From a virus (taxonomy: Duplodnaviria; Caudoviricetes), in the IMG/VR virus record IMGVR_UViG_3300031965_000012, positions 7,998-71,997 of that record: DNA of 64,000 nt. The stretch is one strand, 5' to 3'. The notes under the pieces were generated by a model. It had not been told where the DNA came from. It did not search any database and worked only from the letters and a program-made list of their open reading frames with translations. The position numbers were made by a program, and so were the translations under genes. Positions 4,063 to 51,911 of this stretch are shown in pieces; positions within the stretch are counted from its first letter, which is position 1; every line of letters starts with the position of its first letter.

Positions 4063-5877
4063 CTATGCTGGCCTCTCATAAAATTGAAAACTATAGGTAT
4101 ACCCACGCTCCAAAAAATCTGTATTGGCTATGTAATCAGTTAGTGCCGTGGTGTTGTCTAAACCAACAAAAGAATCGGCTACTTTATTTTGAGAAATGAC
4201 ATCTGTAATAAACCACGAATTATAATTACGCTCAACGATAGTAGGCTGACCACATGTAGCCCTAATATTATTAGTATACCACTCAAGTTCATCGGTATAT
4301 AAAATATCAAAATACGAATCAAGAGTTTCTGATGTAGGCGTGCAGGTTTGGTATGTTGTTGCTTGTAGTGGACCAATCTGAGTGATGAACTCTATTGATC
4401 TATTACAACCGTGCTCAACGCCATCTATATCCTCAAATGCAAATGTAGTCCAAAAAGAAGATTGGTAATTTGCGTAAAAATCAACATTAACTACTGTCCC
4501 GCCTTGATTAACTGTGACATGGCAATAACCTGTGCCGGTGCCAGTCTCAATTTTATCATAAAGTAGGCTGTATAAACTAACGGGGTCTAGGGCAATTCTC
4601 TCAGAACAAATAACTATATTTCCAGCAGTACACGAAAGCACATTAGTAGAAGTGCCAAATAAATCACTCACATCCACAGTTGCTGAGTCATAACCATACC
4701 ATGTCCATTCCTGAACCCAGTCCTTTAAAATATAATTAGCAACGTCACCAAACGGAGGTAATTCAAAAGGGTGATCCCAATCCTGGGCCTCAATTTCAGT
4801 AAGTGTTGGCCCAGTAAAAACAAGGCTAAGTGGAACTCCTTCAGTAGTATTCCACACACCAGACCCCGTATTCCACGCGATATAAGGGTTGCCAGCTATA
4901 ACACCAGCGTAGCTCTGTTCATAAATCCATGTGCCATTATACGCGTCTGAATACCCATTAGTATACGGTGTTCTTATTTCCCTGATTAACCCCGGTATTG
5001 ACATCCCAGCAGGTCCACCGGCAGTGGAAAGTGATTGCGTCGTTATTACAGCCTCAACCTCTGCTAAAGTGGCATCCTGGACTAAGAATTCACCAGTCTC
5101 AAAATCGTACAAACTATATAATTCATCTGCATAATCTATATTGTTGGTGTATAACGGTGTTTTATTAAGTCTAATTATTAAATTAGCAGCACATTTAACC
5201 GGTGATTCTGTAAATCCAATAACTTTAGGCGTATTCCAATTATATGAAAATTGTACTAGTACTTTATCACCTACTTCAAACGCACGTGAATTACACGGTG
5301 GATACTCAATAGAAACAGAGAATAAAAGTGGAGTTTGATTAACATTAAGCCCCACCATAACTGCCGATGTAAGCACTACTGCACATTTGTCAGTGGTGTA
5401 ATTGATTGCGTAAATAGTACCTTCCCTGTAGGATGGTTTCCATTTTTCGGTCCCGGCAAGCATAGCATAATTATAATAAGCAGATGCCGGTGTCATAAGG
5501 GCAGTAGGGCGTATCCATCCATCATCTGCCTGTGACCATGATCCAATATCAATTACGTTTTTGAACCCCCCCTCAATCACCGCCTCAGCAATAGGGACAG
5601 TACCTGTCAAAGTTTCATCATATCGTGTTGACCAAATAAAAACGTATTCCCCTGTAGTGATGGAATTTAATTTTACAATCTGCTTTTGGTATGAAGTCTT
5701 TAATAGCTTCATATAGGATATGGCATTACTATCTGTTTCCGTCAAAAGGCGCTCATCAATATCAGCAATACGTGCCTCAAAAACGGCAATACGATCAGTA
5801 ATCCCAGTGGAATCATATTGCAAATAGACATAGTATTTCGAATTGCCTAAATATGATATAATTGTGCCCTTACCCAT
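4063..5877 (-). CDS. Tail tip / baseplate-like protein
   Basis: 604-aa ORF tightly coupled in the tail operon; N-terminal coiled coil and OB-like segment (AFEVGDKVLVQF). Confidence 0.5.
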   Translation of the reverse strand: MGKGTIISYLGNSKYYVYLQYDSTGITDRIAVFEARIADIDERLLTETDSNAISYMKLLKTSYQKQIVKLNSITTGEYVFIWSTRYDETLTGTVPIAEAVIEGGFKNVIDIGSWSQADDGWIRPTALMTPASAYYNYAMLAGTEKWKPSYREGTIYAINYTTDKCAVVLTSAVMVGLNVNQTPLLFSVSIEYPPCNSRAFEVGDKVLVQFSYNWNTPKVIGFTESPVKCAANLIIRLNKTPLYTNNIDYADELYSLYDFETGEFLVQDATLAEVEAVITTQSLSTAGGPAGMSIPGLIREIRTPYTNGYSDAYNGTWIYEQSYAGVIAGNPYIAWNTGSGVWNTTEGVPLSLVFTGPTLTEIEAQDWDHPFELPPFGDVANYILKDWVQEWTWYGYDSATVDVSDLFGTSTNVLSCTAGNIVICSERIALDPVSLYSLLYDKIETGTGTGYCHVTVNQGGTVVNVDFYANYQSSFWTTFAFEDIDGVEHGCNRSIEFITQIGPLQATTYQTCTPTSETLDSYFDILYTDELEWYTNNIRATCGQPTIVERNYNSWFITDVISQNKVADSFVGLDNTTALTDYIANTDFLERGYTYSFQFYERPA

Positions 5878-19391: not shown

Positions 19392-19413
19392 AATAAAGAA
19401 ATTATAAAATATT

Positions 19414-19449
19414 TAAAATAAACCTTGTTTTTATTTTAAATATGAATTA
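19414..19449 (+). promoter_or_regulatory. Class-E (early-like) promoter copy 1
   Basis: TAAAATAAACCTTGTTTTTATTTTAAA core, TTGTTT-17-TATTAT; core repeated five times. Confidence 0.65.
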
Positions 19450-19502
19450 TTATGGTTTCTAAAGGGCATGAGAGATCAATTAAAACATTAGGAGGGTAGG
19501 AT

Positions 19503-23482: not shown

Positions 23483-23493
23483 GGTAAAATAAT

Positions 23494-23529
23494 TAAAATA
23501 AACCTTGTTTTTATTTTAAATATGAATTA
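23494..23529 (+). promoter_or_regulatory. Class-E promoter copy 2
   Basis: Same core as 19414-19449. Confidence 0.65.
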
Positions 23530-28634: not shown

Positions 28635-28732
28635 AAGTATAAAATAATTAAAATAAACCTTGTTTTTATTTTAAATTGCTATATAATAGTAATCAAGAGG
28701 TAAGGGAAATTCAACAATAACTAAAAACAAGG
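28635..28732 (+). repeat. Class-E promoter plus leader copy 3 (98 bp identical to 46597-46694)
   Basis: Direct base-by-base comparison. Confidence 0.85.
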
Positions 28733-28742
28733 GAGTAAGGAC

Positions 28743-28967
28743 ATGAAGGTATTGGAAAAATTCTTAAAAAGTGATGGATTTAAGCATACTACACACAGTA
28801 ATTCCTGGAATAAAGGTAATACAAGAGTTTATTTTGAGGATAACACCGTTCATGTGCTCCGGTTTAATAACCCTAAATCTCAATTGATAGAGTGGCATAA
28901 TATTATTGACGGTAATATGTCAATTGAAGCAATTGAAAGTATTATTTTCACAATGGCCAGAGTTTAA
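28743..28967 (+). CDS. Hypothetical early protein
   Basis: First ORF after promoter copy 3, with RBS. Confidence 0.55.
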   Translation: MKVLEKFLKSDGFKHTTHSNSWNKGNTRVYFEDNTVHVLRFNNPKSQLIEWHNIIDGNMSIEAIESIIFTMARV

Positions 28968-28977
28968 CTTAAAAATC

Positions 28978-29016
28978 TAAACTTTTTCATAATTATTTTT
29001 AGGGAACTTAGTATAA
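28978..29016 (+). promoter_or_regulatory. Class-M promoter copy 1 (39 bp identical to 50046-50084)
   Basis: TTTTTCATAATTATTTT-N9-TAGTATAA. Confidence 0.6.
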
Positions 29017-29033
29017 ATAAGGGAGGTAGAGAA

Positions 29034-29423
29034 ATGAAAAGATACATGAGGAAGGCGTTAATCCAGAATGAGAAACAACTCAAGGCGGGTAAATATATCC
29101 GGGCCTCTGTAAATAGTGAAGGAGAAGCATTTTTTCATACGGAGGATGTAGTAGGTGTGCCGTATACAAAGAAAATTGGTGGGTATATTGGTCATAGTGA
29201 GCAGGCAAGGGCGATTAAGACTAAAAACCTTTATAATAATTATGCCTATATAAATGACCTAATGGTACACGCTACTCTATTTAAATTCAGTAACAGGCTA
29301 TTGGCGGAACTTTCCAAAATATCTGACCCAATAGAATTTTTGGAATTTATTACGGGAAATAAACTTGCTACCGATAAAAGACAGTATATTAAAATGGAGT
29401 GGAGAACGAATAGAAACTGGTAA
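29034..29423 (+). CDS. Hypothetical protein
   Basis: GGAGG RBS, 129 aa. Confidence 0.55.
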   Translation: MKRYMRKALIQNEKQLKAGKYIRASVNSEGEAFFHTEDVVGVPYTKKIGGYIGHSEQARAIKTKNLYNNYAYINDLMVHATLFKFSNRLLAELSKISDPIEFLEFITGNKLATDKRQYIKMEWRTNRNW

Positions 29424-35560: not shown

Positions 35561-36238
35561 ATGAAAAAATTAATGGTATATTCCATATTTTTGAGTATTT
35601 CAGGGGAAGTTGGATTATTTAAGCAGGGGTCTTTCACTACTTTTATCCGTTTAGCAGGGTGTAATATCCATTGTGGATATTGTGATACTCCTAACACTTT
35701 AAGAATGGATAGCGGTACATCCCAATCAATTGAGTCCATAATTGAGGCAGTTGAGGCTATAGGATGTAAACAGGTATTAATTACCGGTGGCGAGCCACTC
35801 ATGCAAAGAACGGCGCTTAATGATTTAGTATATAATCTACAAGTTAAAGGGTATAATATACAGATTGAAACAAACGGATCATTTGTGCCACAATTAGAAA
35901 CCACTGACCCTATTTGCTGGGTAATAGATTATAAGTTGCGTGGTTCTTTAATGGAGCATAGGATGCCACCGATTGATAAGTTTGTAAGGCAGGTGCCTTA
36001 CAACTCCTGGGTAAAATTTGTTTGCTGTGATGAGGATGATTTTAACCAGGCACTTGAAGTAATTAAATTGATTAAAACTGTTTTACCCTATGGCAGTATT
36101 CAATTTGCTATGTCGCCCGCCGGATTTCCAGGAAAAGAATTATATAAGTGGATGAGAGATAAACGGCTATATGATATTGTTTTGAATACACAAATCCATA
36201 AATTTATATTCCCGGAAGGTGAGGAAGAAATAAAATAA
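35561..36238 (+). CDS. queE: 7-carboxy-7-deazaguanine synthase (radical SAM)
   Basis: SISGE, FIRLAGCNIHCGYCDT, ITGGEP, IETNG, QIHK. Confidence 0.93.
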   Translation: MKKLMVYSIFLSISGEVGLFKQGSFTTFIRLAGCNIHCGYCDTPNTLRMDSGTSQSIESIIEAVEAIGCKQVLITGGEPLMQRTALNDLVYNLQVKGYNIQIETNGSFVPQLETTDPICWVIDYKLRGSLMEHRMPPIDKFVRQVPYNSWVKFVCCDEDDFNQALEVIKLIKTVLPYGSIQFAMSPAGFPGKELYKWMRDKRLYDIVLNTQIHKFIFPEGEEEIK

Positions 36239-36248
36239 TTATTTTTTA

Positions 36249-36333
36249 TAAAATAAACCTTGTTTTTATTTTAAATATGAATTATTATCTTTATTAACAG
36301 GTAAGGGAAATTCAACAATAACTAAAAACAAGG
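36249..36333 (+). promoter_or_regulatory. Class-E promoter plus leader copy 4
   Basis: Same core, plus the AGGTAAGGGAAATTCAACAATAACTAAAAACAAGG leader shared with copies 3 and 5. Confidence 0.7.
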
Positions 36334-41811: not shown

Positions 41812-42123
41812 ATGATAGAATTACTACATAAAATACTTTCATTCCGTGATAAACGGAACTGGAAACGATTTCATTCTGGAATGTCATTATCACATGGCCT
41901 CATGATTGAAGCTGGTGAATTGGCAAGAAATTTTCAATGGAATAGAAGTCCTAACATTGAAAATCTTATTGATGAAATAGCGGATTGTCAGATTTTTTTA
42001 ATGTATATTGCCCATGATAACGGAATTGATATTAAAAAAGTAGTAGAACAGAAGATAGCCAAAAATGAAATAAAATACCCTGTAAACGGTGCCCTTGAAA
42101 AAGAATGGGGTAAATGTAAATGA
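41812..42123 (+). CDS. MazG-like nucleotide pyrophosphohydrolase
   Basis: EAGELARNFQW, DEIADCQIFL, QKIAKNEIKYP. Confidence 0.8.
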   Translation: MIELLHKILSFRDKRNWKRFHSGMSLSHGLMIEAGELARNFQWNRSPNIENLIDEIADCQIFLMYIAHDNGIDIKKVVEQKIAKNEIKYPVNGALEKEWGKCK

Positions 42124-43424
42124 AGGGGTTTTTCAGCTCTTCTACCATTGAGAAATACAGTGGTGAAAAAAGGACCAGTACTATTGCCGCCTGTGGTAGT
42201 TGTGGGATTTATAAAAAATGCAAAAACCCAAAGCTAACGGCAATAGGGAAAGGGAAAAAGAAAATATTAATTATCAATGATTGCGTCTCTGCCAAAGAAG
42301 ATTACCACGGAACCTACATAATCCCCAATAATATAAAAAAAGCGTTTAAAGATTGTGGGATTGATATTGAAAAAGATTGTAAAGTAATCGCCGCCATTCA
42401 GTGTTTTAATGGGGATAGACAAGGTAAGCATTCTTGGTGTTCCTACGCCCAAATAGAGGCCTGTAGGCCCCGAATAATGAAAGAGGTGGCTGAGTATAAG
42501 CCACGAATGATTTTTCTTCTGAGCGGGCAAATATTTAAAAAAGCAGAGGACTCAAAATTTGCGGTTGAATCATATTTAGGGCATCGATGGAAAAAAGAAC
42601 TTGGTGGAGTCCATAAATGGCGAAATCATGTTATCCCAGATCATGAAAATAATTGCTGGGTGGTCCCAACATATAGCCCTCAATATATAGAGCGCCATGC
42701 TATTAAAAAGGGGATGGATACAACTGAGATATTTTGGCGGCAGGATATTAGCCAGGCATTAGAGTATCTTGATAAGCCACTACCACACAAATTTGAAACA
42801 TCCCAAATTGAAGTACTCACCAAAGAAAAAGAAATCAATAGCAGGTTAAACCGTATTTTACAGCTCCAACCATATATTGCTTTTGACTATGAAACAACCG
42901 GATTAAAGCCACATAGAAAAGAACAGAAAATATATACTTGTTCTATATGTGATAACCTCGATTCAGCGTTTGCTTTCCCGATGTCCGATGAAATTCTTAC
43001 TAATTTTAAGGCTATTTTACTACAATGGAGAATTAGAAAGATAGCGGCCAATCTCAAATTTGAACACATATGGTCAAACGTAAAATTAGGCACAAACGTT
43101 ATGGGATGGTTGTGGGATACAATGTTGACTGCTCATTTAATTGATAACAGAAAAATGATTACTTCCCTTAAATTTCAATCTTTTGTCCGGTTTGGTGTAG
43201 AAGATTATGATAGCCACATAGCTCCATTTTTAAAGGCTACTGATAAGGAGGTTGACAAATACGGGGCAAACGGACTGAACCAGATCCACAAAATTGATAT
43301 GAAGGATTTACTTATATACAATGGAATGGATGCATTACTGGAATACCACTTGGCACTTGATCAAATGGAACGGATGAAAATTGATCCTAAAGAATTTAGA
43401 TTGCCAACAAGTGAGGGGGTATAA
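42120..43424 (+). CDS. Uracil-DNA-glycosylase-like domain fused to PolA 3'-5' exonuclease
   Basis: CGSCGIYKKC, IEACRP, PTYSP (family-4 UDG-like); AFDYETTG, NLKFE, WDTML, YNGMDA (exonuclease). Confidence 0.82.
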   Translation: MKGFFSSSTIEKYSGEKRTSTIAACGSCGIYKKCKNPKLTAIGKGKKKILIINDCVSAKEDYHGTYIIPNNIKKAFKDCGIDIEKDCKVIAAIQCFNGDRQGKHSWCSYAQIEACRPRIMKEVAEYKPRMIFLLSGQIFKKAEDSKFAVESYLGHRWKKELGGVHKWRNHVIPDHENNCWVVPTYSPQYIERHAIKKGMDTTEIFWRQDISQALEYLDKPLPHKFETSQIEVLTKEKEINSRLNRILQLQPYIAFDYETTGLKPHRKEQKIYTCSICDNLDSAFAFPMSDEILTNFKAILLQWRIRKIAANLKFEHIWSNVKLGTNVMGWLWDTMLTAHLIDNRKMITSLKFQSFVRFGVEDYDSHIAPFLKATDKEVDKYGANGLNQIHKIDMKDLLIYNGMDALLEYHLALDQMERMKIDPKEFRLPTSEGV

Positions 43425-44888
43425 ATGCTACTACATCCACAAACAAAACAAGCAAACCAATTACTCCATGAGGGTATCCTTGCTTTTGCCGATTTTGAAA
43501 TGAACGGTCTAAGGATTGATTTAAAACACTGTAAAAAGTGGGATAAGAAAATCACAAAAAAGATTAAAAAATTAACCACAAAAATTTATAAATCAAAGGA
43601 AATAAAAGTTTGGAAAAAGGTGTATAAGTCCGATTTCAATATGGATTCTAACAAACAGTTGGGAACCGTACTTTTTGAGCATTTAGGCTATAAACCTGAG
43701 ATATACACCACGGAAGAAAAAACAACTCCTAGCGTATCAGAGGCCGCTTTACAGGCGGCAAATATTCCTATTGCAAACCAGCTCCTTGAACTGAGAAAAA
43801 TTCAAAAACTTCAAAATACGTACCTTGGTAACATTATAAAAGAGACGATTGACGGGTATATCCATCCAATATTTAATTTACATACCGTATCAACTTTCCG
43901 CTCAAGTAGCAACAGTATTAACTTCCAAAATCAGCCCAAACGTGATCCAAAAGCAAAGAAAATGATCCGGTCTGCTTTTATTCCAAGAGAGGGACATTGT
44001 CTAGGTGGGTTGGATTATTCCGGTGTGGAAGTACGAATTTCTTGCTGTGTCCATAAAGATCCGAATCTAATTGCTGATGTAATTGATCCTAAAAAAGATA
44101 TGCATCGGGATATGGCAATTGAATGCTTTATGTTGGATGAAAATGAGTGGACAAAACAAGCACGAAATACAGCAAAAAATAAATTTGTTTTCCCAGAGTT
44201 TTATGGAAACTGGTTTAAAGCATGTGCCAGAGATTTATGGAATGATATTGAATTATACGGCCTTGTAACAAAAAATGGGACCCCACTCTATGAACATTTA
44301 AAAAAACAGGGTATTAAAAATCTCTCTCAATATACAGATTATATTGAGGATGTTGAGGATAGATTTTGGAATGTGCGATACCCTGTATTTAATGAGTGGA
44401 AAGAAAAGGTCTGGCATGATTATCAAAAAACTGGCTATGTGGATTTAATTACCGGATTTCGTTGCCGGGAAAAAATGAAAAAAAATGAGGTATTAAACAG
44501 GCCAATTCAAGGCCCCGCATTCCATTGTCTTGTTTGGTCAGCAATTGAAGCAAATAGAATAGCTAAAAAAGAGAAATGGAAAACCAAATTAGTAGGGCAA
44601 ATCCACGATGAATTGACCGTGGATTTTAATGGAAAAGAGATGTCTTATGTACTTGATACCGCCAGCCGTATAATGACAAAAGACATTAGAGAGGCGTTTC
44701 CGTGGATCATTATTCCGCTTGAAGTTGAGGCGGAAGTCACCCCTTTAAATAGCCCGTGGCCCACTGCAAAAGGAGTAACAAGGTCTGGTAAATGTAAGTG
44801 TGGAAATCGTTGGTGGCATGTGGAGCTATTGGAAAACTCATTTACAAAATGGATCTGCCCTGTTTGTGGAAATTCGGAGTGTAAATAA
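43425..44888 (+). CDS. Family A DNA polymerase (polymerase domain)
   Basis: TFRSSSNSINFQNQP, LDYSGVEVRI, AKNKFVFPEFYG, NRPIQG, QIHDE. Confidence 0.92.
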   Translation: MLLHPQTKQANQLLHEGILAFADFEMNGLRIDLKHCKKWDKKITKKIKKLTTKIYKSKEIKVWKKVYKSDFNMDSNKQLGTVLFEHLGYKPEIYTTEEKTTPSVSEAALQAANIPIANQLLELRKIQKLQNTYLGNIIKETIDGYIHPIFNLHTVSTFRSSSNSINFQNQPKRDPKAKKMIRSAFIPREGHCLGGLDYSGVEVRISCCVHKDPNLIADVIDPKKDMHRDMAIECFMLDENEWTKQARNTAKNKFVFPEFYGNWFKACARDLWNDIELYGLVTKNGTPLYEHLKKQGIKNLSQYTDYIEDVEDRFWNVRYPVFNEWKEKVWHDYQKTGYVDLITGFRCREKMKKNEVLNRPIQGPAFHCLVWSAIEANRIAKKEKWKTKLVGQIHDELTVDFNGKEMSYVLDTASRIMTKDIREAFPWIIIPLEVEAEVTPLNSPWPTAKGVTRSGKCKCGNRWWHVELLENSFTKWICPVCGNSECK

Positions 44889-44890
44889 AT

Positions 44891-45706
44891 ATGAAAAAAG
44901 CGGCCTGGTTTTGTACTAAAGTTGATAAACATCGTTTAAGTGAAGATGAAACAACGCGCTACATAAAACGGGCACGGCGTGGGAATAGAGCTGCTCGTGA
45001 TTTAATCGTTCAGGATAATATTTTTTTAGTTATTAAAATCGCGGGGGAACTCAATAAAATTTATCGTTATAAGGGTGAATTTGAGGATCTTGTCCAGGAA
45101 GGTTCCATCGGTATAATAAAGGCAATTTCCACTTTTGATTTATCCAGAAATATAAAATTTATGTCCTACGCCCATTACTGGGTACGTGCTGAAATTATTA
45201 GATTTATCATTAACAATACAAAGATAATAAAAATTGGGACAACCCAAACCGAAAGGGCCTTATTTTTTAAAGGCAAAATGATAAATGAGATTCTCAGACT
45301 ACCCCTGCCTGAAAGAGAGAAAGAAATTGCGGAATTAGCAGCAGCATATAATACCACAGTTGATATAATTTGGAGTTTTATCCCCCGGCTAAATAAAGCT
45401 AGTGAACGTTCATTTAGTTTAGAATTAGGGGATGATATTCCATCTGAAAAAACAATAGAGGAGTGCCACTGTGAGGAAGAGGAGGCATCATTTTTATTAA
45501 AAGCGATATCAACAGCATTAAATAAAAATGAGTTATATGTGATCAATAACCGGTATCTAAAAGATGAAAAAACCTTACAGGAAATCGGGGATGAATTAGG
45601 TTTTACAAGGGAACGAATTAGGCAAATTGAAACTAAAGCACTTGGTAAAATAAAAAAACAATATCAATTTTTAACATGGGAGAAAAACAATGCCACTACA
45701 TATTGA
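44891..45706 (+). CDS. RpoH-like group 3 sigma factor
   Basis: DLVQEGSIGIIKAISTFD, FMSYAHYW, KIGTTQTERALFF (RpoH-box-like), TLQEIGDELGFTRERIRQIE. Confidence 0.85.
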   Translation: MKKAAWFCTKVDKHRLSEDETTRYIKRARRGNRAARDLIVQDNIFLVIKIAGELNKIYRYKGEFEDLVQEGSIGIIKAISTFDLSRNIKFMSYAHYWVRAEIIRFIINNTKIIKIGTTQTERALFFKGKMINEILRLPLPEREKEIAELAAAYNTTVDIIWSFIPRLNKASERSFSLELGDDIPSEKTIEECHCEEEEASFLLKAISTALNKNELYVINNRYLKDEKTLQEIGDELGFTRERIRQIETKALGKIKKQYQFLTWEKNNATTY

Positions 45707-46598
45707 TTACCGGCCAGATAATTTAGATGAAATTGAGGGAAATGAAGCAGTTGTTAAAGCATTAAAAAGCAAATTAAAGAGTAAGGACATTCCCCACTCT
45801 TTTTTGATAACCGGTCCTAGCGGATGTGGGAAAACAACAATCGCCCGAATCATTAAAACAGAATTAGGATGTAGTGATGATAATTACAAAGAGGTAGATT
45901 CGGCAGATTTTAGGGGGATTGATAGCATTCGTGAAATCAGGAAACAAATGAATACCAAAGGACTAGGCGGGGGTATTAAAGTTTATTTGCTAGATGAATG
46001 TCATCAGATATCTAAAGATGGACAATCAGCACTATTGAAAGCATTAGAGGACACGCCACCTCATGTTTATTTTATTTTGGCAACCACTGATCCACAAAAG
46101 CTATTACCAACTATAAAAACGCGTTGTACGACATATAATGTTGAACCCCTTACCCAGGCCCATATGGAGAAGTTTTTGGCGGAGATATGCGATTCTGAAG
46201 CCAAGAAAGTACCAGAAAAAGTACTTGCTCAGATTGCCATGGATTCTATGGGTAGTCCGAGGGCGGCACTTGTCATTTTAGACAAAGTAATCGACATGAA
46301 GAAAAAGGATATGGAGGAAGCTGCAAAACAAGCTGCTATACAGGAAAATCAGTCGATTGAGCTATATCAGGCGGTAATTAAGAAAAAGGGCTGGAAAGCG
46401 ATTTCTGCTATCATAAAAGGGCTAAATGAAGAGCCTGAGACAATCAGAATAAAAGGAATGTTTTATTTTGAAGCTGTGTTGCTAAATAGTGGACAAGAAC
46501 GGATGTTTGATATTTTGGAATGTTTAAATAAACCAATATATAATGAGCCAAAGCGCCCTCAACTATCCATGATGTTTTTTGATGCATCCTCATGTTAA
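45690..46598 (+). CDS. Clamp loader (DnaX gamma/tau-like)
   Basis: LHIDYRP, GPSGCGKTT, LLDECH, ALLKALEDTP, ATTDPQKL..TIKTRC. Confidence 0.9.
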   Translation: MPLHIDYRPDNLDEIEGNEAVVKALKSKLKSKDIPHSFLITGPSGCGKTTIARIIKTELGCSDDNYKEVDSADFRGIDSIREIRKQMNTKGLGGGIKVYLLDECHQISKDGQSALLKALEDTPPHVYFILATTDPQKLLPTIKTRCTTYNVEPLTQAHMEKFLAEICDSEAKKVPEKVLAQIAMDSMGSPRAALVILDKVIDMKKKDMEEAAKQAAIQENQSIELYQAVIKKKGWKAISAIIKGLNEEPETIRIKGMFYFEAVLLNSGQERMFDILECLNKPIYNEPKRPQLSMMFFDASSC

Positions 46599-46694
46599 GT
46601 ATAAAATAATTAAAATAAACCTTGTTTTTATTTTAAATTGCTATATAATAGTAATCAAGAGGTAAGGGAAATTCAACAATAACTAAAAACAAGG
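46597..46694 (+). repeat. Class-E promoter plus leader copy 5, directly upstream of the cassette island
   Basis: 98 bp identical to 28635-28732. Confidence 0.85.
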
Positions 46695-46703
46695 AGAACT
46701 ACC

Positions 46704-46898
46704 ATGAAACTTTACGCTTATGACCCCAACACGATGGAAGTTTTGGCAATCGCAAATGGAGAAACCAACGAAGAATGTGAATCCAAAATGAACGAAGCCG
46801 GATTTCCTGACGGTGACGAGATCGGTTGGACTTACTCTCCGGCCTTTGGAGCGGTTGACGGTTTGGTAGAAACTGACGATGCCAAGGAAATCGAGTAA
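46704..46898 (+). CDS. Acidic hypothetical early protein
   Basis: AAGGAG RBS; GC-richer codons than the flanking core genes. Confidence 0.6.
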   Translation: MKLYAYDPNTMEVLAIANGETNEECESKMNEAGFPDGDEIGWTYSPAFGAVDGLVETDDAKEIE

Positions 46899-46909
46899 TG
46901 GTTGAGGCC

Positions 46910-46943
46910 AAAAAGAGCCGGGGTAATAATGTTGACCCGGCTC
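46910..46943 (-). terminator. Minus-strand intrinsic terminator candidate
   Basis: GAGCCGGG/CCCGGCTC stem followed by TTTTT on the minus strand. Confidence 0.5.
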
Positions 46944-47091
46944 ACTCAAAGAGAACGCCCGCCGGGTAGCGATAAAAATACGCTGGACGGCGGGCGAAAT
47001 TGAAGAGGTCAAGGTAGCGGCGGAACGGGCCGGCGAGGATGTTTCCTCTTTTATTCGGGTCGCTGCCCTTGACCGTTGCCGTAAAATCTAA
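46944..47091 (+). pseudogene. RHH-like gene fragment lacking an in-frame start
   Basis: RVAIKIRWTAGEIEEVKVAAERAGEDVSSFIRVAALDRCRKI*; three in-frame stops upstream inside the hairpin. Confidence 0.4.
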
Positions 47092-47211
47092 CGCCAAGGG
47101 TAACTTGCCTTTTGGCTACCACAAACTTGATAAGGAGCAATGGGATGAATCAACCACATGATATTGACGAAGCCGACGGCCAAAAGGTCAACGTTGGCCC
47201 GTTTGTTAGCG
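47086..47211 (-). other. attC site 1 (126 bp)
   Basis: + strand ATCTAAC-GCCAAG-GGTAACT...CGTTGGCC-CGTTT-GTTAGCG; extra G and T in the 3' arm. Confidence 0.8.
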
Positions 47212-47447
47212 GCTTTGAGGAGTTATTTAATGCCCTGAAAGAATCACTTGAACATGACGTTTCATGGTGGCGTATTATCGGATTTGTAGATGAACCGAAA
47301 GGAGACTGCCAACCGAGCGATTGCAAATATTTTGAATACGAATTTTGTGACCAGAGATGCGGCGGGCCGGATGGGGATATGTGTGATGGCGACATCTATT
47401 TTCCACTCCCTGATGGCAGATTTCTGATGGTGAATTATTGCATCTAA
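47145..47447 (+). CDS. Cassette A hypothetical Cys-rich protein (starts inside attC1)
   Basis: AAGGAG RBS at 47132-47137; stop TAA inside the next box. Confidence 0.6.
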   Translation: MNQPHDIDEADGQKVNVGPFVSGFEELFNALKESLEHDVSWWRIIGFVDEPKGDCQPSDCKYFEYEFCDQRCGGPDGDMCDGDIYFPLPDGRFLMVNYCI

Positions 47448-47529
47448 CGTTAAGGGTGAGCCGACCGGGCCACCCAACAAGGCAAAAACCGCCAGCGTTC
47501 CCCCGGTCGGCTCTACCCGCTTGTTATGC
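47442..47529 (-). other. attC site 2 (88 bp)
   Basis: ATCTAAC-GTTAAG-GGTGAGC-CGACCGGG...CCCGGTCG-GCTCTACC-CGCTT-GTTATGC. Confidence 0.88.
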
Positions 47530-47547
47530 ACTTTTGGAGTTATTGCA

Positions 47548-47976
47548 ATGGCAAATTGGGATAAGCGATTCCTTGACCTGGCCCAGCATATTGCTGGATG
47601 GTCAAAAGATCCATCGACACGGTGTGGGGCTGTTGTCACAGATGGGAAGCGGATAGTTAGCATGGGTTTTAACGGATTTCCACAGGGTGTTGGAGATACC
47701 AGCGAGCGACTGGACAACAGAGAGACAAAATACCGTCTTGTGTTACACGCCGAACAAAACGCGTTGTCATTTGCGAACCGTGATCTATCAGGCTGCACAA
47801 TCTATGTCTACCCTATGCCTCCATGTTCCAGATGTGCGGCCCAGATTATCCAGGCTGGAATTAGACGAATAGTCACTCAGCGTCCTGATGCTGATAAGTT
47901 GGAACGGTGGCAGGAAGATTTTGAGTTGGCCAACGAAATGTACCGGGAAACCGGTGTTGATTTTAACTACCTGTAA
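47548..47976 (+). CDS. dCMP deaminase (cassette B)
   Basis: WDKRFLDLA, SKDPST, MGFNGFP, HAEQNA, PCSRCA. Confidence 0.92.
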   Translation: MANWDKRFLDLAQHIAGWSKDPSTRCGAVVTDGKRIVSMGFNGFPQGVGDTSERLDNRETKYRLVLHAEQNALSFANRDLSGCTIYVYPMPPCSRCAAQIIQAGIRRIVTQRPDADKLERWQEDFELANEMYRETGVDFNYL

Positions 47977-47985
47977 GGAGAAGAC

Positions 47986-48333
47986 ATGACCCCTGAACGA
48001 TTTCAAGAAATAGTCAAAGAACTGCAAGTCAAGACCACCGATGTCTTGACCAAGAAAGCGATGGAGTACAGCAGAAACGGCGAAAGGTTCCACAATTTTG
48101 TCGTGGCCGGTCGCCGTTTAGGGTGTGACCCTATACAAGCTCTTATCGGCATGAAAGAGAAGCACAGTGTTTCCCTGGTTGACATGCTGGAAGATTTGAA
48201 GGACGGGAAGCTGCCAACCATTGCTATGCTTAATGAGAAGTTCGGTGACGAAATCAATTATCTGATCCTTGAATATGCCATGTTCAGAGAGAGGATTGAC
48301 GCTTCCCCAAAAGGTGCCGAAGCGGGTACATAA
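47986..48333 (+). CDS. Hypothetical helical phage protein (cassette B, second gene)
   Basis: AAGGAG RBS; KAMEYS..ERFHNF, KFGDEINYL; stop inside the box. Confidence 0.65.
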   Translation: MTPERFQEIVKELQVKTTDVLTKKAMEYSRNGERFHNFVVAGRRLGCDPIQALIGMKEKHSVSLVDMLEDLKDGKLPTIAMLNEKFGDEINYLILEYAMFRERIDASPKGAEAGT

Positions 48334-48450
48334 CGATAAAGCTCACCTGAAACATGGGAAACGAAACTATGATTGAAATGACGAAAACACCCACCGTGAT
48401 GGAACAAAGAGCAGCAGCCCCATGTTTTCAGGTGAAGCGCCTGGTTATGC
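48328..48450 (-). other. attC site 3 (123 bp)
   Basis: ACATAAC-GATAAA-GCTCACC-TGAAACATGGG...CCCATGTTTTCA-GGTGAAGC-GCCTG-GTTATGC. Confidence 0.88.
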
Positions 48451-48662
48451 CAAAAACACGGGGTTACACCGAAGCCCAGGCCATTGCAGGAGGGATGCAC
48501 TATTCTGACGATAAGCACTGCCCCGAGTGTGGGTGCCCATGGTACGGCAATAAAAACATGCTTGGTGATGGATCAAGGGTGTGTTGCGATTGCTATCAAG
48601 ATTGGTGGACAGATATTGTTTATACTATGGTGGCAGAAAGGCGAGAACTACCCGAGGCATAA
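48354..48662 (+). CDS. Cassette C Zn-finger-like hypothetical protein (frame opens inside attC3)
   Basis: CPECGC...CCDC; in-frame ATGs at 48354, 48369, 48378 and 48447. Confidence 0.6.
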   Translation: MGNETMIEMTKTPTVMEQRAAAPCFQVKRLVMPKTRGYTEAQAIAGGMHYSDDKHCPECGCPWYGNKNMLGDGSRVCCDCYQDWWTDIVYTMVAERRELPEA

Positions 48663-48746
48663 CGGCTTGATAACCCGACCGGGCCATTGAAGCCGCCCGG
48701 GAGGCCACCCCGAATTGCCCCGGTCGGGTTTATGAAATTGTTATGC
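48657..48746 (-). other. attC site 4 (90 bp)
   Basis: GCATAAC-GGCTTG-ATAACCC-GACCGGG...CCCGGTC-GGGTTTAT-GAAATT-GTTATGC. Confidence 0.85.
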
Positions 48747-48758
48747 AAGGAGAAGAAT

Positions 48759-48953
48759 ATGGCAAGGGCACGATTACATATCATTTGTGGGAATTGTGGG
48801 TGCAATGACGAGTGGAAATTGATTTTATCTCGTGACGGGGATGATATTACCAAAGAAGACCCTGAGTTTGAAGATGCAGCACGATTGCTATGCCGTAATT
48901 GCTCCACATTGCACAATCTGAAAGATTCGGCAAAAACGGTAGAGATTTTATAG
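48759..48953 (+). CDS. Cassette D Zn-ribbon-like hypothetical protein
   Basis: AAGGAG RBS; CGNCGC...CRNC. Confidence 0.65.
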   Translation: MARARLHIICGNCGCNDEWKLILSRDGDDITKEDPEFEDAARLLCRNCSTLHNLKDSAKTVEIL

Positions 48954-48955
48954 GA

Positions 48956-49041
48956 GCATAACGCTTTAACTCAGCGGCGGGCCAAAAGCGGAGGCTCAAA
49001 GCGCAAAAGTTATTCCCGTCCGCTGGAGTGCTTTGTTATGC
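48956..49041 (-). other. attC site 5 (86 bp)
   Basis: GCATAAC-GCTTTA-ACTCAGC-GGCGGG...CCCG-T-CC-GCTGGAGT-GCTTT-GTTATGC, canonical extrahelical T and G. Confidence 0.9.
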
Positions 49042-49238
49042 AAAATTTTGTATTTGTTTATGCCCTTAACGGTGATTACCGCTGTCTCGGAATTGATGCA
49101 GCACAGACAACCGGCAAGCAATTAATAAAAGAGGGCTGGAAGCACACAGCCACGTTAAATCCTGAAACATGGATGGAATTTTTTCTTAATGGCGACGAAA
49201 CGCGAAGATTTGAAGCGATTGAATCTATCTCTGCATAA
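49038..49238 (+). CDS. Cassette E hypothetical protein (ATG inside the attC5 box)
   Basis: GGAG at 49025-49028 within the attC; TAA inside the terminal GCATAAC box. Confidence 0.6.
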   Translation: MQNFVFVYALNGDYRCLGIDAAQTTGKQLIKEGWKHTATLNPETWMEFFLNGDETRRFEAIESISA

Positions 49239-49297
49239 CAGTGTCAATAAGTGGAAAACTTCTACATATCACGATATTAAACGTTAAAAGTGGAAAA
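49233..49297 (-). other. Terminal recombination box (attI-like site or attC remnant)
   Basis: GCATAAC without a pairing arm, followed by the direct repeat AAGTGGAAAA at 49249-49258 and 49288-49297. Confidence 0.45.
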
Positions 49298-49348
49298 TAT
49301 AACAGGGTGTTATCAGGGATAATAGTCAAGTTAATACCCACACATTTT

Positions 49349-49424
49349 TAAACCAGGCATAGCTTTTCCATGCTGAGCTATCCGTTGGGCACGGTGCTGA
49401 CAATAGTGTCGGTGGCCTGGTTTA
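49349..49424 (+). ncRNA. Candidate structured RNA, perfect four-way junction
   Basis: 10-bp closing stem TAAACCAGGC/GCCTGGTTTA with helices ATAGC/GCTAT, CCGT/ACGG and TGCTGACA/TGTCGGTG (G-U pairs favour the + strand). Confidence 0.5.
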
Positions 49425-49445
49425 TTTTTAAAGAGGGAGAAACTT

Positions 49446-49811
49446 ATGGTAAATAATGGAAGTATAGCTATCTATAGGGGACCAGTAACTATACAAAGCG
49501 ATCATACTGAGGTAAACGACTACTGGAAAGAAAACGACATAGAGAAGCCACAGCAAGTAGTGGTCTGTGCCGCTTGCAGGAGGGGTGATTTGATTATTGC
49601 CGGGGCCAGACATTTTGATAAAGTTATGCGATCCCAACTTAACCATATTTCTGTAAAACCACATGGTGAATGGGAAGAAGGTTTTATTGACCAATTTGGT
49701 GATTTCCTTACCCGCGTTGAAGCGATGAAAGTTGCTCTTGCCGCTGGTCAGAAAATTGATTTTAAAAGAAATGGTGACAAGGAAAAGCTTTATAGCGAAG
49801 GGCTTTATTAA
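49446..49811 (+). CDS. Conserved-looking phage hypothetical protein
   Basis: VVCAAC, IIAGARHFD, EGFIDQFGDFLTR.EA, LYSEGLY. Confidence 0.65.
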   Translation: MVNNGSIAIYRGPVTIQSDHTEVNDYWKENDIEKPQQVVVCAACRRGDLIIAGARHFDKVMRSQLNHISVKPHGEWEEGFIDQFGDFLTRVEAMKVALAAGQKIDFKRNGDKEKLYSEGLY

Positions 49812-50045
49812 AGGAGAGAAAATGAAAATAGAAGTAATATTGGCTTGTATTTTGCCGTACTTGTAACTTTCTTAATTGCGGTGGCATTATGCGAATATGG
49901 CCATAAAAATACAATCAAAAAAGCCTACAACGAGGAGGTGTGCCGAGGCGATCACCTGTATTATAAAGGTCTAGGAATAAAACTCACAGATTACGGTGCG
50001 CCGATAAGATGTGATGGAACGACTACCGATCTTGAGGAAACAAAA

Positions 50046-50084
50046 TAAACTTTTTCATAATTATTTTTAGGGAACTTAGTATAA
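50046..50084 (+). promoter_or_regulatory. Class-M promoter copy 3
   Basis: 39 bp identical to 28978-29016. Confidence 0.6.
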
Positions 50085-50311
50085 TATATAAATGAGATTA
50101 AAAATGAAATGAAATTGTATACGCATGAAAGTAAAGAAGATCCTAGAAATTGTGTCATTGTTTTGGCGAACGATAGAGAAATTGCTAAAAGAATGATACG
50201 AGAACAATTAAACCAAATAGGAGCAAAAAAAGAAAAAATAAACATAACTCAGGCGGTAAAACCTAGTAGGCAAATGGTTGTCTACGCAAATAAAGGAGAG
50301 GGAAAGAAACA

Positions 50312-50794
50312 ATGGATGAAAGAAATTATGAACAAGATATCTCAATTGATGTAAATAGTCTTGATCTCGAATGGAACCAGCAAGCATTTATTTTTGGGTA
50401 TTACTCAAAACAACTTGCAAAGGCTATTCGCAATGTGAATCGTGTTTGGGAAAAATTAAAAATCCGCCGGTCTGAATTAATTCAGGAATGCAGAGAAAAT
50501 GATCCTAAAGCCTCCGCCCCAGTAATGGAAGCATACTACCGCACGAATGAAGACCATCAAAAGCTAAAGCAGGATTTGTTTGATGCTGAATATGAAAGGG
50601 ATATTCTTCAAAATGCCGTATATGCCCTTAATCATAAAAAAGCGGCATTGGAAAAGTTGGTTATTCTCCACGGGCAGTCCTATTTTGCCGGTCCTGTAAT
50701 TCCAAATGATATTAATCGTACGTGGGAAAAGCAAGCAACCCCTGAAAAACTTGAGGAACGCAAAGAAAAACGAGCAAAGCGAAAAAGAAGTTAA
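50312..50794 (+). CDS. UvsY-like recombination mediator
   Basis: DISID..SLDLEW..Q, helical; lies before the SSB and RecA genes. Confidence 0.6.
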   Translation: MDERNYEQDISIDVNSLDLEWNQQAFIFGYYSKQLAKAIRNVNRVWEKLKIRRSELIQECRENDPKASAPVMEAYYRTNEDHQKLKQDLFDAEYERDILQNAVYALNHKKAALEKLVILHGQSYFAGPVIPNDINRTWEKQATPEKLEERKEKRAKRKRS

Positions 50795-50918: not shown

Positions 50919-51911
50919 ATGGCCAAAGCAAAGAAAGTGGATCGGAAAGAAGCAAGACGGCTGAAAGCAGAGGCGCGAAGGAAACGCCGTGAAAAACGGG
51001 AAAATAGAGGAGGTAGCAGCCTTTATAAAATTTCAGGGGGTGCCGAATACCTTGAGTTGAAAGACCGGATGAAACTTGATTTTATCCCGTTTATCGACAA
51101 AGAAGGAAATGTTCAATACACATTTGAATACATGATGCACCGTGAAGTTGGTCCGGAGGAGGTACGGGTTGTTTGTCCTAAAACATTTGGTCAGCGGTGC
51201 CCTATTTGTGAGGAAGTCGCTATGTTGTCCAAGAATTATAAGGAGAACAAAAAGACCATTGAGGCCCTACGGGCGAAATCACGCAATCTCTATAATGTTA
51301 TTGACACAGAGGATCGTGATAAGGGTGTTCAATTCCTTGATCAAAGTTATTTTCTTTTTGAGAAGCAGCTTGAGACTGAGCTGGAAGAGTACGGGGATGA
51401 GAGCCCAGAAATCGACTTTGATGATCCGTCAGGCGGAATGACTGTTGCCGTCCGTTTTGAGAAAAAGAAATTCAGTGATAATGAGTATTTTGAAGCTGAC
51501 CGGATTGACTTTATTGAACGTGATGAACAGTATGATGATGATATAATTGAGCAGGCTATTAAGCTCGATACCATCCTGATTGTCCATGAATATGAAAAAC
51601 TTGACGCCATTTTCCAGGGGATTGATACCCCTCATGAAGATGAAGAGCAAGAGGGGACAGAAAAAAAGGATAAAAAAGAGCCGGAACCTGAACCTGAACC
51701 TGAGGAAGAAGAAAAACCAAAACGGAAGCGAAATAAAAAAGAGCCGGAACCTGAACCTGAACCTGAGGAAGAAGAAGAGGAAGAGAAAGAAAGTAATCCC
51801 TGTCCAGAAGATTTCACTTTCGGCGTTGACTTTGGTAAGTATGACGAATGTGAAGATTGTTCAGAAGCCAAAGAGTGTAAAAAGGAGAAAAAACGGCTGA
51901 AAAAGAAATAA
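50919..51911 (+). CDS. gp32-like single-stranded DNA-binding protein
   Basis: HREVGPE, CPKTFGQRCPICE, RNLYNVID, acidic tail. Confidence 0.75.
   Translation: MAKAKKVDRKEARRLKAEARRKRREKRENRGGSSLYKISGGAEYLELKDRMKLDFIPFIDKEGNVQYTFEYMMHREVGPEEVRVVCPKTFGQRCPICEEVAMLSKNYKENKKTIEALRAKSRNLYNVIDTEDRDKGVQFLDQSYFLFEKQLETELEEYGDESPEIDFDDPSGGMTVAVRFEKKKFSDNEYFEADRIDFIERDEQYDDDIIEQAIKLDTILIVHEYEKLDAIFQGIDTPHEDEEQEGTEKKDKKEPEPEPEPEEEEKPKRKRNKKEPEPEPEPEEEEEEEKESNPCPEDFTFGVDFGKYDECEDCSEAKECKKEKKRLKKK
51670..51775 (+). repeat. 43-bp direct repeat (two copies) encoding KKEPEPEPEEE
   Basis: 51670-51712 equals 51733-51775. Confidence 0.9.

Follow-up and report, generated by a model that had tools for sequence, protein, structure and literature searches.

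How a row of integron recombination sites comes to lie among the replication genes of a tailed phage, and what could act on it there, is the question raised by the locus described here. The locus belongs to a stretch of 64,000 nucleotides (hereafter the window) of a linear viral contig of 71,997 b (IMG/VR record IMGVR_UViG_3300031965_000012), for which CheckV gives a completeness of ~68%. Five imperfect hairpins of 86-126 nt, all within 1,956 bp, were confirmed from the sequence at the positions originally predicted, and these delimit five cassettes that together hold six open reading frames (ORFs; Table 1). The locus is probably an integrase-less integron-type cassette array, i.e., a cluster of attC sites lacking integron integrases (CALIN), carried among the early/replication genes of a large tailed phage from soil.

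An attC bottom strand is defined by an R' box, RYYYAAC, and an R'' box, GTTRRRY (Nivina et al., 2016, PMC5027507). In the window, RYYYAAC fits all five 5' boxes and GTTRRRY fits four of the five 3' boxes, the exception being attC1. Apart from its R boxes, each of the five sites has a central spacer that stays unpaired, extrahelical bases on an L'/L'' stem, and a variable terminal loop. The words GTTATGC and GCATAAC are concentrated in the same place, with 7 of the window's total of 10 found inside 47523-49239. When the + strand was folded as single-stranded DNA (ssDNA), three of the elements beat all 200 shuffles (z -3.0 to -3.6); elements 1 and 5 did not (z -1.3 and -1.7, respectively). The sixth, lone GCATAAC box that had been noted downstream is likewise real, and it marks where the GC-rich island around the whole array ends on the right.

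The identity of the elements was examined with covariance models, since a simple box-plus-fold detector, dropped in their favor, was too unspecific. Known sites were drawn from integron-bearing phage records (PMC9892861), with two class 1 arrays (L057, L058), the Vibrio anguillarum chromosomal integron (L053), and the Shewanella M16-3 integron (L054), and further from the phages TJE1 (L055), ctTUS972 (L056), and PH101 (L060). A first model (R1), built from four class 1 attC bottom strands with a hand-written structure, already matches attC4 and attC2 with exact ends on the + strand. A second model (R2) contains zero window sequence and was trained on ten attC bottom strands chosen as the best of the known sites, of which 8 are class 1, 1 is from ctTUS972, and 1 is from TJE1. 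With filters off and the whole window as target, R2 ranks the five elements first, each matched over its full length on the + strand at E-values, to be read as rough, of 8e-10 to 0.07; the next match, an unrelated one, reaches 11.5 bits (E 2.1). The 20-bit threshold used in the HattCI+Infernal pipeline is passed by all of the sites but attC1. For comparison, true attC sites outside the training set score 42.4 and 25.3 bits (TJE1), 23.6 bits (PH101), and 13-22 bits (V. anguillarum chromosomal integron). R2 found no further site in the remaining 8 kb of the contig, such that a covariance-model search of the whole contig, as had been proposed with the original prediction, calls all five sites, here with a model of our own making. 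On the R2 structure, 91% of cells across the five sites are paired and 12 of 21 pairs show compensatory changes (on both sides), a level of pairing that none of 500 shuffles reaches and that slid controls approach to at most 48%, with the caveat that the alignment had been fitted to the R2 model. A scan of 44-52 kb against Rfam at E <= 10 returned nothing attC-like and carries little weight, as no attC family was among the matches. The proposed attC identity thus passes covariance-model, structural, and clustering tests, which supports the five elements as genuine attC sites with every sequence-level hallmark of the class, and they would be predicted to recombine as folded ssDNA.

Table 1. Features of the cassette array and its surroundings, with positions in the window (RBS, ribosome-binding site; RHH, ribbon-helix-helix; SSB, ssDNA-binding protein)
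Feature	Position	Strand	Remarks
Clamp loader	45690-46598	+	
Promoter-leader repeat, family D1	46597-46694	+	100% identical over 98 nt to 28635-28732; GC-rich island begins right after
64-aa ORF	46704-46898	+	first gene in the GC-rich island; ahead of attC1; no family match
RHH/NikA-like fragment	46936-47091	+	no start codon; TAA stop in first RYYYAAC box; Pfam NikA-like 26.4 bits (cut-off 27)
attC1	47086-47211	+	126 nt; 3' box GTTAGCG degenerate; loop contains RBS and ATG of next ORF; R2 17.0 bits, whole-window E 0.07
Cassette 1 ORF	47145-47447	+	100 aa; orphan; homology to partial matches (runs X3, X5) ends at box
attC2	47442-47529	+	88 nt; 5' box ATCTAAC mismatches own 3' box GTTATGC; R2 27.2 bits; R1 20 bits
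Cassette 2, gene 1	47548-47976	+	dCMP deaminase; PF00383 E 2e-18; phrog_174 E 2e-44
Cassette 2, gene 2	47986-48333	+	115-aa all-helical protein, phrog_6802
attC3	48328-48450	+	123 nt; in-frame ATGs of next ORF in loop and in 3' box; R2 31.0 bits; fold z -3.6
Cassette 3 ORF	48354-48662	+	up to 102 aa; cysteine-rich
attC4	48657-48746	+	90 nt; sequence related to attC2; R2 23.9 bits; R1 24 bits
Cassette 4 ORF	48759-48953	+	64 aa; CxxC motifs
attC5	48956-49041	+	86 nt; most canonical; bulged T and G on 3' arm, spacing as attCaadA7 (by eye); R2 46.6 bits, E 8e-10
Cassette 5 ORF	49038-49238	+	66 aa; ATG in GTTATGC box, stop in lone GCATAAC box
Lone RYYYAAC half-site (GCATAAC)	49233-49239	+	no hairpin after; - strand reads G|TTATGC; right border of GC-rich island
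121-aa phrog_839 protein			with the gp32-like SSB, next genes beyond the right (entry) end of the array
gp32-like SSB	50919-51911	+	

The fit between ORFs and sites is close. Of the six ORFs that precede a box, five (the RHH fragment and the 100-, 115-, 102-, and 66-aa ORFs) have their stop codon inside it, and that of the 64-aa ORF of cassette 4 falls 3 nt ahead of its box. The agreement claimed between each 3' box and the 5' box at the far end of the same ORF unit (5/7, 6/7, 7/7, 7/7, and 7/7 positions) was found to be correct on re-reading the sequence. The further argument that attC2 has hybrid boxes, as expected of joined cassettes, holds in part: the site agrees at 4 of 7 positions with its own array partner and at 6 of 7 with the far box, which fits the cassette model, but attC2 is the sole truly informative site in this comparison and the argument is statistically weak.

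Phage genes had been proposed as the cargo of these cassettes. This is upheld for cassette 2, with its dCMP deaminase and phrog_6802 protein, but not for the other ORFs, which are orphans. The 100-aa protein of cassette 1 has no homologue in a set of 5.8 billion proteins and no usable Atlas match. The AlphaFold2 model of the 115-aa protein (pLDDT, predicted local distance difference test, 85) consists of five helices and gave no Foldseek or VIA-align match above background, the best Z being 6.1 over part of the helical model; a role as a MazG-like nucleotide pyrophosphatase was a guess that these structure comparisons do not support. In the stretch ahead of attC1, an ATG at 46929 opens a frame of 24 codons that stops at 47003, in a frame different from that of the start-less RHH/NikA-like fragment, and 46929-47091 is probably a frameshifted gene.

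The orientation of the sites can be read from their asymmetry. The bottom strands of aadA7 and of phage attC sites have RYYYAAC at their 5' end and the extrahelical bases on their 3' (L'') arm (PMC9892861; Nivina et al., 2016, PMC5027507). In all five sites of the window, it is the 3' arm of the + strand that carries the unpaired extra bases: attC2 and attC4 each have a single bulged T, and attC5 reads T, five bases, G, three pairs, spacer, and GTTATGC, which is nearly the aadA7 layout. R2, which makes no error of strand in the arrays whose orientation is known, likewise calls the + strand. On the grounds of these bases and of the R2 calls, the coding strand in the window is the attC bottom strand, predicted to be the recombinogenic one. 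Each attC therefore belongs with the ORF on its 3' side and not with the preceding ORF. Read on the - strand, the array takes the canonical form 'G|TTATGC + five (cassette + attC)', with the lone box at 49233-49239 as the entry junction.

In the four integrase-linked arrays that were checked, by comparison, ORFs are carried on the top strand, opposite to the window. Thus, the array is inverted relative to its genes, and if inserted at an attI site these cassettes would lie antisense to the Pc promoter. Similar polarity, with the bottom strand as the coding strand, was found for 4 of 4 sites in a metagenomic phage (L065), 3 of 3 in a second phage contig (L066), 4 of 4 in ctTUS972, and 2 of 2 in PH101, as compared with 5 of 5 in the window, and it prevails in contigs L076, L078, and L080. 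Phage TJE1 and all four integrase-linked arrays have the canonical, opposite-strand polarity. It should be noted that this tally comes from a small sample picked by relatedness and is treated as a lead. The published two-site CALIN phages HQ632860, KT160311, KJ018214, KP233880, and MN013086 gave no R2 match at E <= 0.05 and lie outside the tally. Three long sites, namely attC1, attC3, and L066:4831-4960, have a loop that includes the RBS and start codon of the ORF that follows.

Across the whole 71,997-b contig, no match was obtained to the integron integrase model TIGR02249, to PF00589 tyrosine recombinases, to resolvases, or to Y1 transposases. The claim that no integrase accompanies the array therefore extends from the window to the full 72 kb, its limit being the ~68% completeness of the contig. 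Since a CALIN is defined by two or more clustered attC sites with no neighboring intI, the array is classed as one.

The carrier of the array is apparently a large, virulent tailed phage from soil with a genome of roughly 100 kb. Terminase, portal, and tape measure genes are encoded on the - strand of the contig, and a replication cluster with helicases, a split family-B polymerase, the clamp loader, and the gp32-like SSB is encoded on the + strand; the run that contains the phage sequence is a soil metagenome. The best protein relative of the clamp loader is 60% identical, nothing was found for it among viral contigs, and a blastn search with 46000-50500 against the phage collection returned no related DNA, from which it follows that the phage is without a close sequenced relative.

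The array occupies most of a GC-rich island between the clamp loader and the SSB gene. GC content is 0.45-0.56 over ~46700-49239 as against 0.28-0.40 in both flanks, and the whole block is compositionally foreign. On its left, GC climbs from ~0.30 to ~0.50 immediately after the leader at 46597-46694, one of five members of a promoter-leader family, D1 (TAAAATAAACCTTGTTTTTATTTTAAAT... with a TATAAT-like box; the others are at 19400-19497, 23485-23529, 28635-28732, and 36236-36333). A second promoter-like family, D3 (AAACTTTTTCATAATTATTTT...TAGTATAAT), is present at 28964, 36599, 50032, and 56218. Both families are likely the phage's own early/middle promoters, and they are possible substrates for module shuffling. 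Within the array, neither a strong promoter consensus nor a terminator at an attC hairpin was found; the terminator-like sites detected are short stems within ORFs or within the arm of attC1, and in no case is an attC hairpin followed by a T-run. Because the island lies downstream of a phage leader and contains no strong promoter or terminator consensus, it is probably read from the phage promoter. Between the end of the array and the RBS of the next gene, a long composite hairpin, AAACCAGGC...GCCTGGTTT, followed by ATTTTT (49349-49432), looks like a terminator of the array transcript.

Parts of the array recur in other metagenomes. Soil runs from another study yielded contigs that match the window at 88-95% identity over 47452-48335, i.e., cassette 2, and then enter the apparent start of another attC. 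One contig of these runs spans 47182-47448 and continues in unlike sequence, and in a sediment run the match spans 47383-47449 and gives way to a different attC-like start; the same run has an attC3-like site with another neighbor. When metagenome contigs were scanned with an attC2/4 pattern, five were found that share the attC only (47442/5-47527/30, 82-89% identity), four of which have 2-6 R2 matches at E <= 1 and none of which has an island ORF. One contig of this attC2 family (L078) encodes an ERF recombinase and a cytosine methylase and is phage-like. In the source sample, other members of the window's attC families occur in AT-rich surroundings (at the loose ends 49012 and 49043). The GC-rich attC2/4 pattern found nothing in viral contigs and one match each in 52 species genomes, mostly of high-GC Actinomycetota, which were taken as chance matches and not as related sites.

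Relatives of the cassette 2 genes are also informative. The 115-aa gene has homologues (84-92%) in a phage that is 99% complete, encodes no integrase, and has four strong attC sites (L065/G002), and further ones in the attC-bearing phage contig L066. In the latter, an N6/N4 DNA methyltransferase lies between two attC sites (4831-5734), with its RBS and ATG contained in the loop of the upstream attC, a cassette that echoes those reported in phage CALINs. The deaminase and the 115-aa protein recur as a pair (81% nucleotide identity, with homology ending at the ORF ends) in a provirus (L062-64, L068/G001; 55 kb, provirus-class contig) that encodes an integron integrase (TIGR02249 404 bits, cut-off 265; L062:1742-2758, and also in L063 and L064), co-oriented with the genes that follow. 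A second IntI-like gene of this provirus is interrupted by one TGA (record G001, integrase genes at 44838-45779 and 48273-49073). R2 found no attC match on the IntI-bearing provirus, including at the deaminase and 115-aa pair; the provirus links gene pools and does not identify the enzyme acting on this array. As far as these contigs can be read, the window's cassettes and attC family are shown to be re-used modularly in other metagenomes. Shuffling through attC recombination in the phage would be in keeping with this and receives indirect support from the same cassettes with other neighbors and the same attC family with other ORFs.

Explanations that would deny the array its identity fare poorly. 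Elements located between co-transcribed genes, three of which contain or touch the start codon of the next ORF, could be regulatory hairpins, i.e., phage terminators, RNA stem-loops, or repetitive extragenic palindrome (REP)-like repeats that resemble attC by chance, and attC sites are themselves thought to work as weak terminators (PMC9892861). However, the elements are confined to the foreign GC-rich island with none in the other ~60 kb, have no terminator T-runs or adjacent promoters, are matched end to end and in the right polarity by a class 1-trained model, and have relatives of the same attC family in unrelated arrays elsewhere, whereas the real regulatory repeats of the phage, D1 and D3, look quite different; chance resemblance is thus close to refuted. 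No more credible is an assembly chimera, in which bacterial integron DNA was misjoined into the phage contig. The left join does cross a repeat that is present twice in the phage, and the left part of the island has a depth of 16.7 versus 10.7-12.7 in the flanks, but this greater depth may reflect GC bias or extra copies. Moreover, the island is flanked on either side by phage genes, the genes of cassette 2 are phage-type, and a single contig of the probable source run (48417-50075) spans the right border at the phage depth of 12.7. The array is therefore not taken as a chimera, with its right border spanned by one contig and its left join passing through the phage's own repeat, which is phage-specific, so that either exit from it stays in this phage.

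The more serious alternatives concern the history and activity of the array. An array copied whole from a bacterial chromosomal array or from another phage, by homologous or illegitimate recombination at the promoter-leader, would now be a fossil block, a moron island with no attC recombination in the phage. We regard this as possible but less likely than an array open to integrase action, and it bears on the history and activity of the array, not on its identity, and is compatible with later IntI activity. Several observations count in its favor and, by the same token, against a cassette array at work in this phage. The left border of the island is not an attC but a phage promoter/RBS, at the 98-nt repeat with its identical second copy, and beyond attC1 there are ~390 bp of GC-rich non-cassette DNA with the start-less RHH fragment, so the block may have come by ordinary recombination rather than through IntI. 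The weakest, degenerate site, attC1 (17 bits; 3' box GTTAGCG), lies at this end; no integrase is seen in the 72 kb; and no circle, deletion, or empty-site product was found. The sole joint in the source sample (46694 to 50046), considered as an excision product, was rejected as it derives from the paralogous promoter locus at 28635-29045, its loose end matching 29017-29046. Off-target or illegitimate recombination has likewise been proposed for phage CALINs (Qi et al., 2023, PMC9892861). To these points may be added that R2 is self-built and is not the curated attC model of IntegronFinder, that the contigs from other runs are short and their 'other neighbors' rest on loose ends of at least 30 letters, and that, with no close relative, cassette gain or loss or an empty site cannot be read among relatives. 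Against a fossil, four of the five sites have intact boxes, bulges, and stems and score on a par with experimentally active sites, the right border is exactly a G|TT half-site, and the same cassettes and attC family have other neighbors in other studies, with breaks at the boxes. Either IntI insertion at a G|TT site or import of the block as a whole at the promoter repeat could account for it. A complete integron, with the phage's own intI (and attI) in the ~32% of the genome missing from the contig or with a relic attI to the right of 49239, is unlikely. Temperate phages with complete integrons are known, the provirus that shares the cassette 2 genes encodes an integron integrase as well as the interrupted copy, and the attC-family members in AT-rich contexts of the source sample would also suit this explanation, as would a 10-bp direct repeat (AAGTGGAAAA, 49249-49258 and 49288-49297) that adjoins the G|TT junction at 49239 on the prospective attI side (- strand reading). 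Known intI genes, however, adjoin attI, and here the neighbors of the entry end are the phrog_839 protein and SSB genes with no adjacent intI; furthermore, the IntI-bearing provirus lacks an R2 attC match and the 99%-complete phage with four strong attC sites has no IntI.

Under the preferred interpretation of the locus as a CALIN, the substrate of an integron integrase would be the folded + strand, with cleavage at the A|C step of each RYYYAA|C box, such that the mobile unit would be 'C-hairpin-GTTRRRY-ORF(s)-RYYYAA' and the lone box at 49233-49239 would be the G|TT junction left by insertion into a non-attC site. The integrase would presumably act in trans; its possible sources are the host, a resident prophage or plasmid that bears IntI, and the third of the phage genome that is missing from the contig. 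The array would be read as part of a phage transcript from the upstream promoter-leader. Recombination of this kind during the life of the phage, and the enzyme responsible for it, are inferred.

As to the suggestion that attC arrays are rarely reported in phages, a check of the literature shows that they are already published, first in 2023. Qi, Rajabal, Ghaly, Tetu, and Gillings (2023; Front Microbiol, PMC9892861) described 17 CALINs in 10,705 phage genomes, including Tetrasphaera phage TJE1, Pseudoalteromonas phage PH101, and Myoviridae sp. ctTUS972, and IntI1 recombined five of six phage attC sites tested in vivo. Like those arrays, the window has attC sites between small co-oriented ORFs in an apparently virulent phage without intI, the same type of R box (TJE1 likewise has GCATAAC/GTTATGC), and R2 scores within their range; PH101 and ctTUS972 also share, by the present analysis, the coding strand as the bottom strand. 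In contrast, the window has five sites versus 2-4 in their integrase-less arrays, is situated in the replication module of a ~100 kb phage with a clamp loader and gp32-type SSB, and carries a dCMP deaminase where theirs carry DNA methyltransferases; that report contains no discussion of strand polarity relative to ORFs. The CALIN as a kind is thus already known, and the array is a strong new example with five sites, phage nucleotide-metabolism cargo, and reversed polarity.

Canonical integrons, both class 1 mobile and sedentary chromosomal (Vibrio, Shewanella), have in common with the array the R'/R'' boxes, the central spacer, L boxes with extrahelical bases, the variable loop, stop codons in boxes, hybrid boxes at cassette joints, and a G|TT half-site at the entry end. 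They differ from it in that the window is without intI, a recognizable attI, or a Pc promoter, has its ORFs on the attC bottom strand, and includes two long sites in whose loop the next ORF already has its RBS and start codon. Cassettes can also be inserted at non-att genomic sites, attG, with the consensus 5'-GWT-3' (Loot et al., bioRxiv 10.1101/2022.09.11.507474), which would give an integrase route into a genome without attI and a product with a lone G|TT half-site like that at 49239-49233 on the - strand. However, the 5'-GWT-3' motif is trivial, and because GC-rich foreign DNA, and not phage backbone, flanks the array at its other end, a simple single-site attG insertion does not explain the whole island.

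In T4-type phages, promoter-stem-loop cassettes (PeSLs) are reported, in work attributed to Arbiol, Comeau, and Krisch in 2010, to mediate modular shuffling of early genes. PeSLs consist of a promoter and a short stem-loop and act through homologous recombination. Repeated intergenic elements, a plastic early-gene region, and a proposed shuffling of accessory genes are features of both systems, and the D1/D3 leaders of the present phage, one of which bounds the island, are comparable; the five window elements differ from PeSLs in having no promoter and in matching attC in sequence and structure.

The array is a cleaner and larger example than those published, in which integron sites extend into the heart of the early region in a large phage of apparently virulent type and carry phage-type genes rather than bacterial resistance or defense genes; no drug-resistance or virulence gene is present in it. 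If an integrase acts on the array, phages could swap accessory genes among unrelated phages by integron machinery. The occurrence of the same gene pair with attC in the window and without attC in the provirus is rare material on how cassettes form, and the reversed polarity in most of the phage arrays examined is a clue to when the sites fold, i.e., during transcription or replication. Tentatively, and with the balance of probability still against it, soil and sediment phages may share a reversed-polarity cassette pool of their own, in which the sense-strand attC would serve as the 5' leader of a gene, its loop sometimes including the RBS and ATG, and in which phage genes would be cassetted and exchanged among unrelated phages via a host or prophage IntI. 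The deaminase and 115-aa pair would be a suggestive candidate for such cassette formation, and with this polarity the recombinogenic strand may be laid open either when early genes are heavily transcribed, being their non-template strand, or on the lagging-strand template.

Two further features of the replication cluster were recorded. The family-B DNA polymerase is split over two adjacent ORFs (42120-43424 and 43425-44888), both of which match phrog_17 over successive parts of the profile. Additionally, the acidic C-terminal part of the gp32-like SSB gene contains a perfect 44-nt direct repeat (51670-51713 and 51733-51776) with a spacing of 63 nt.

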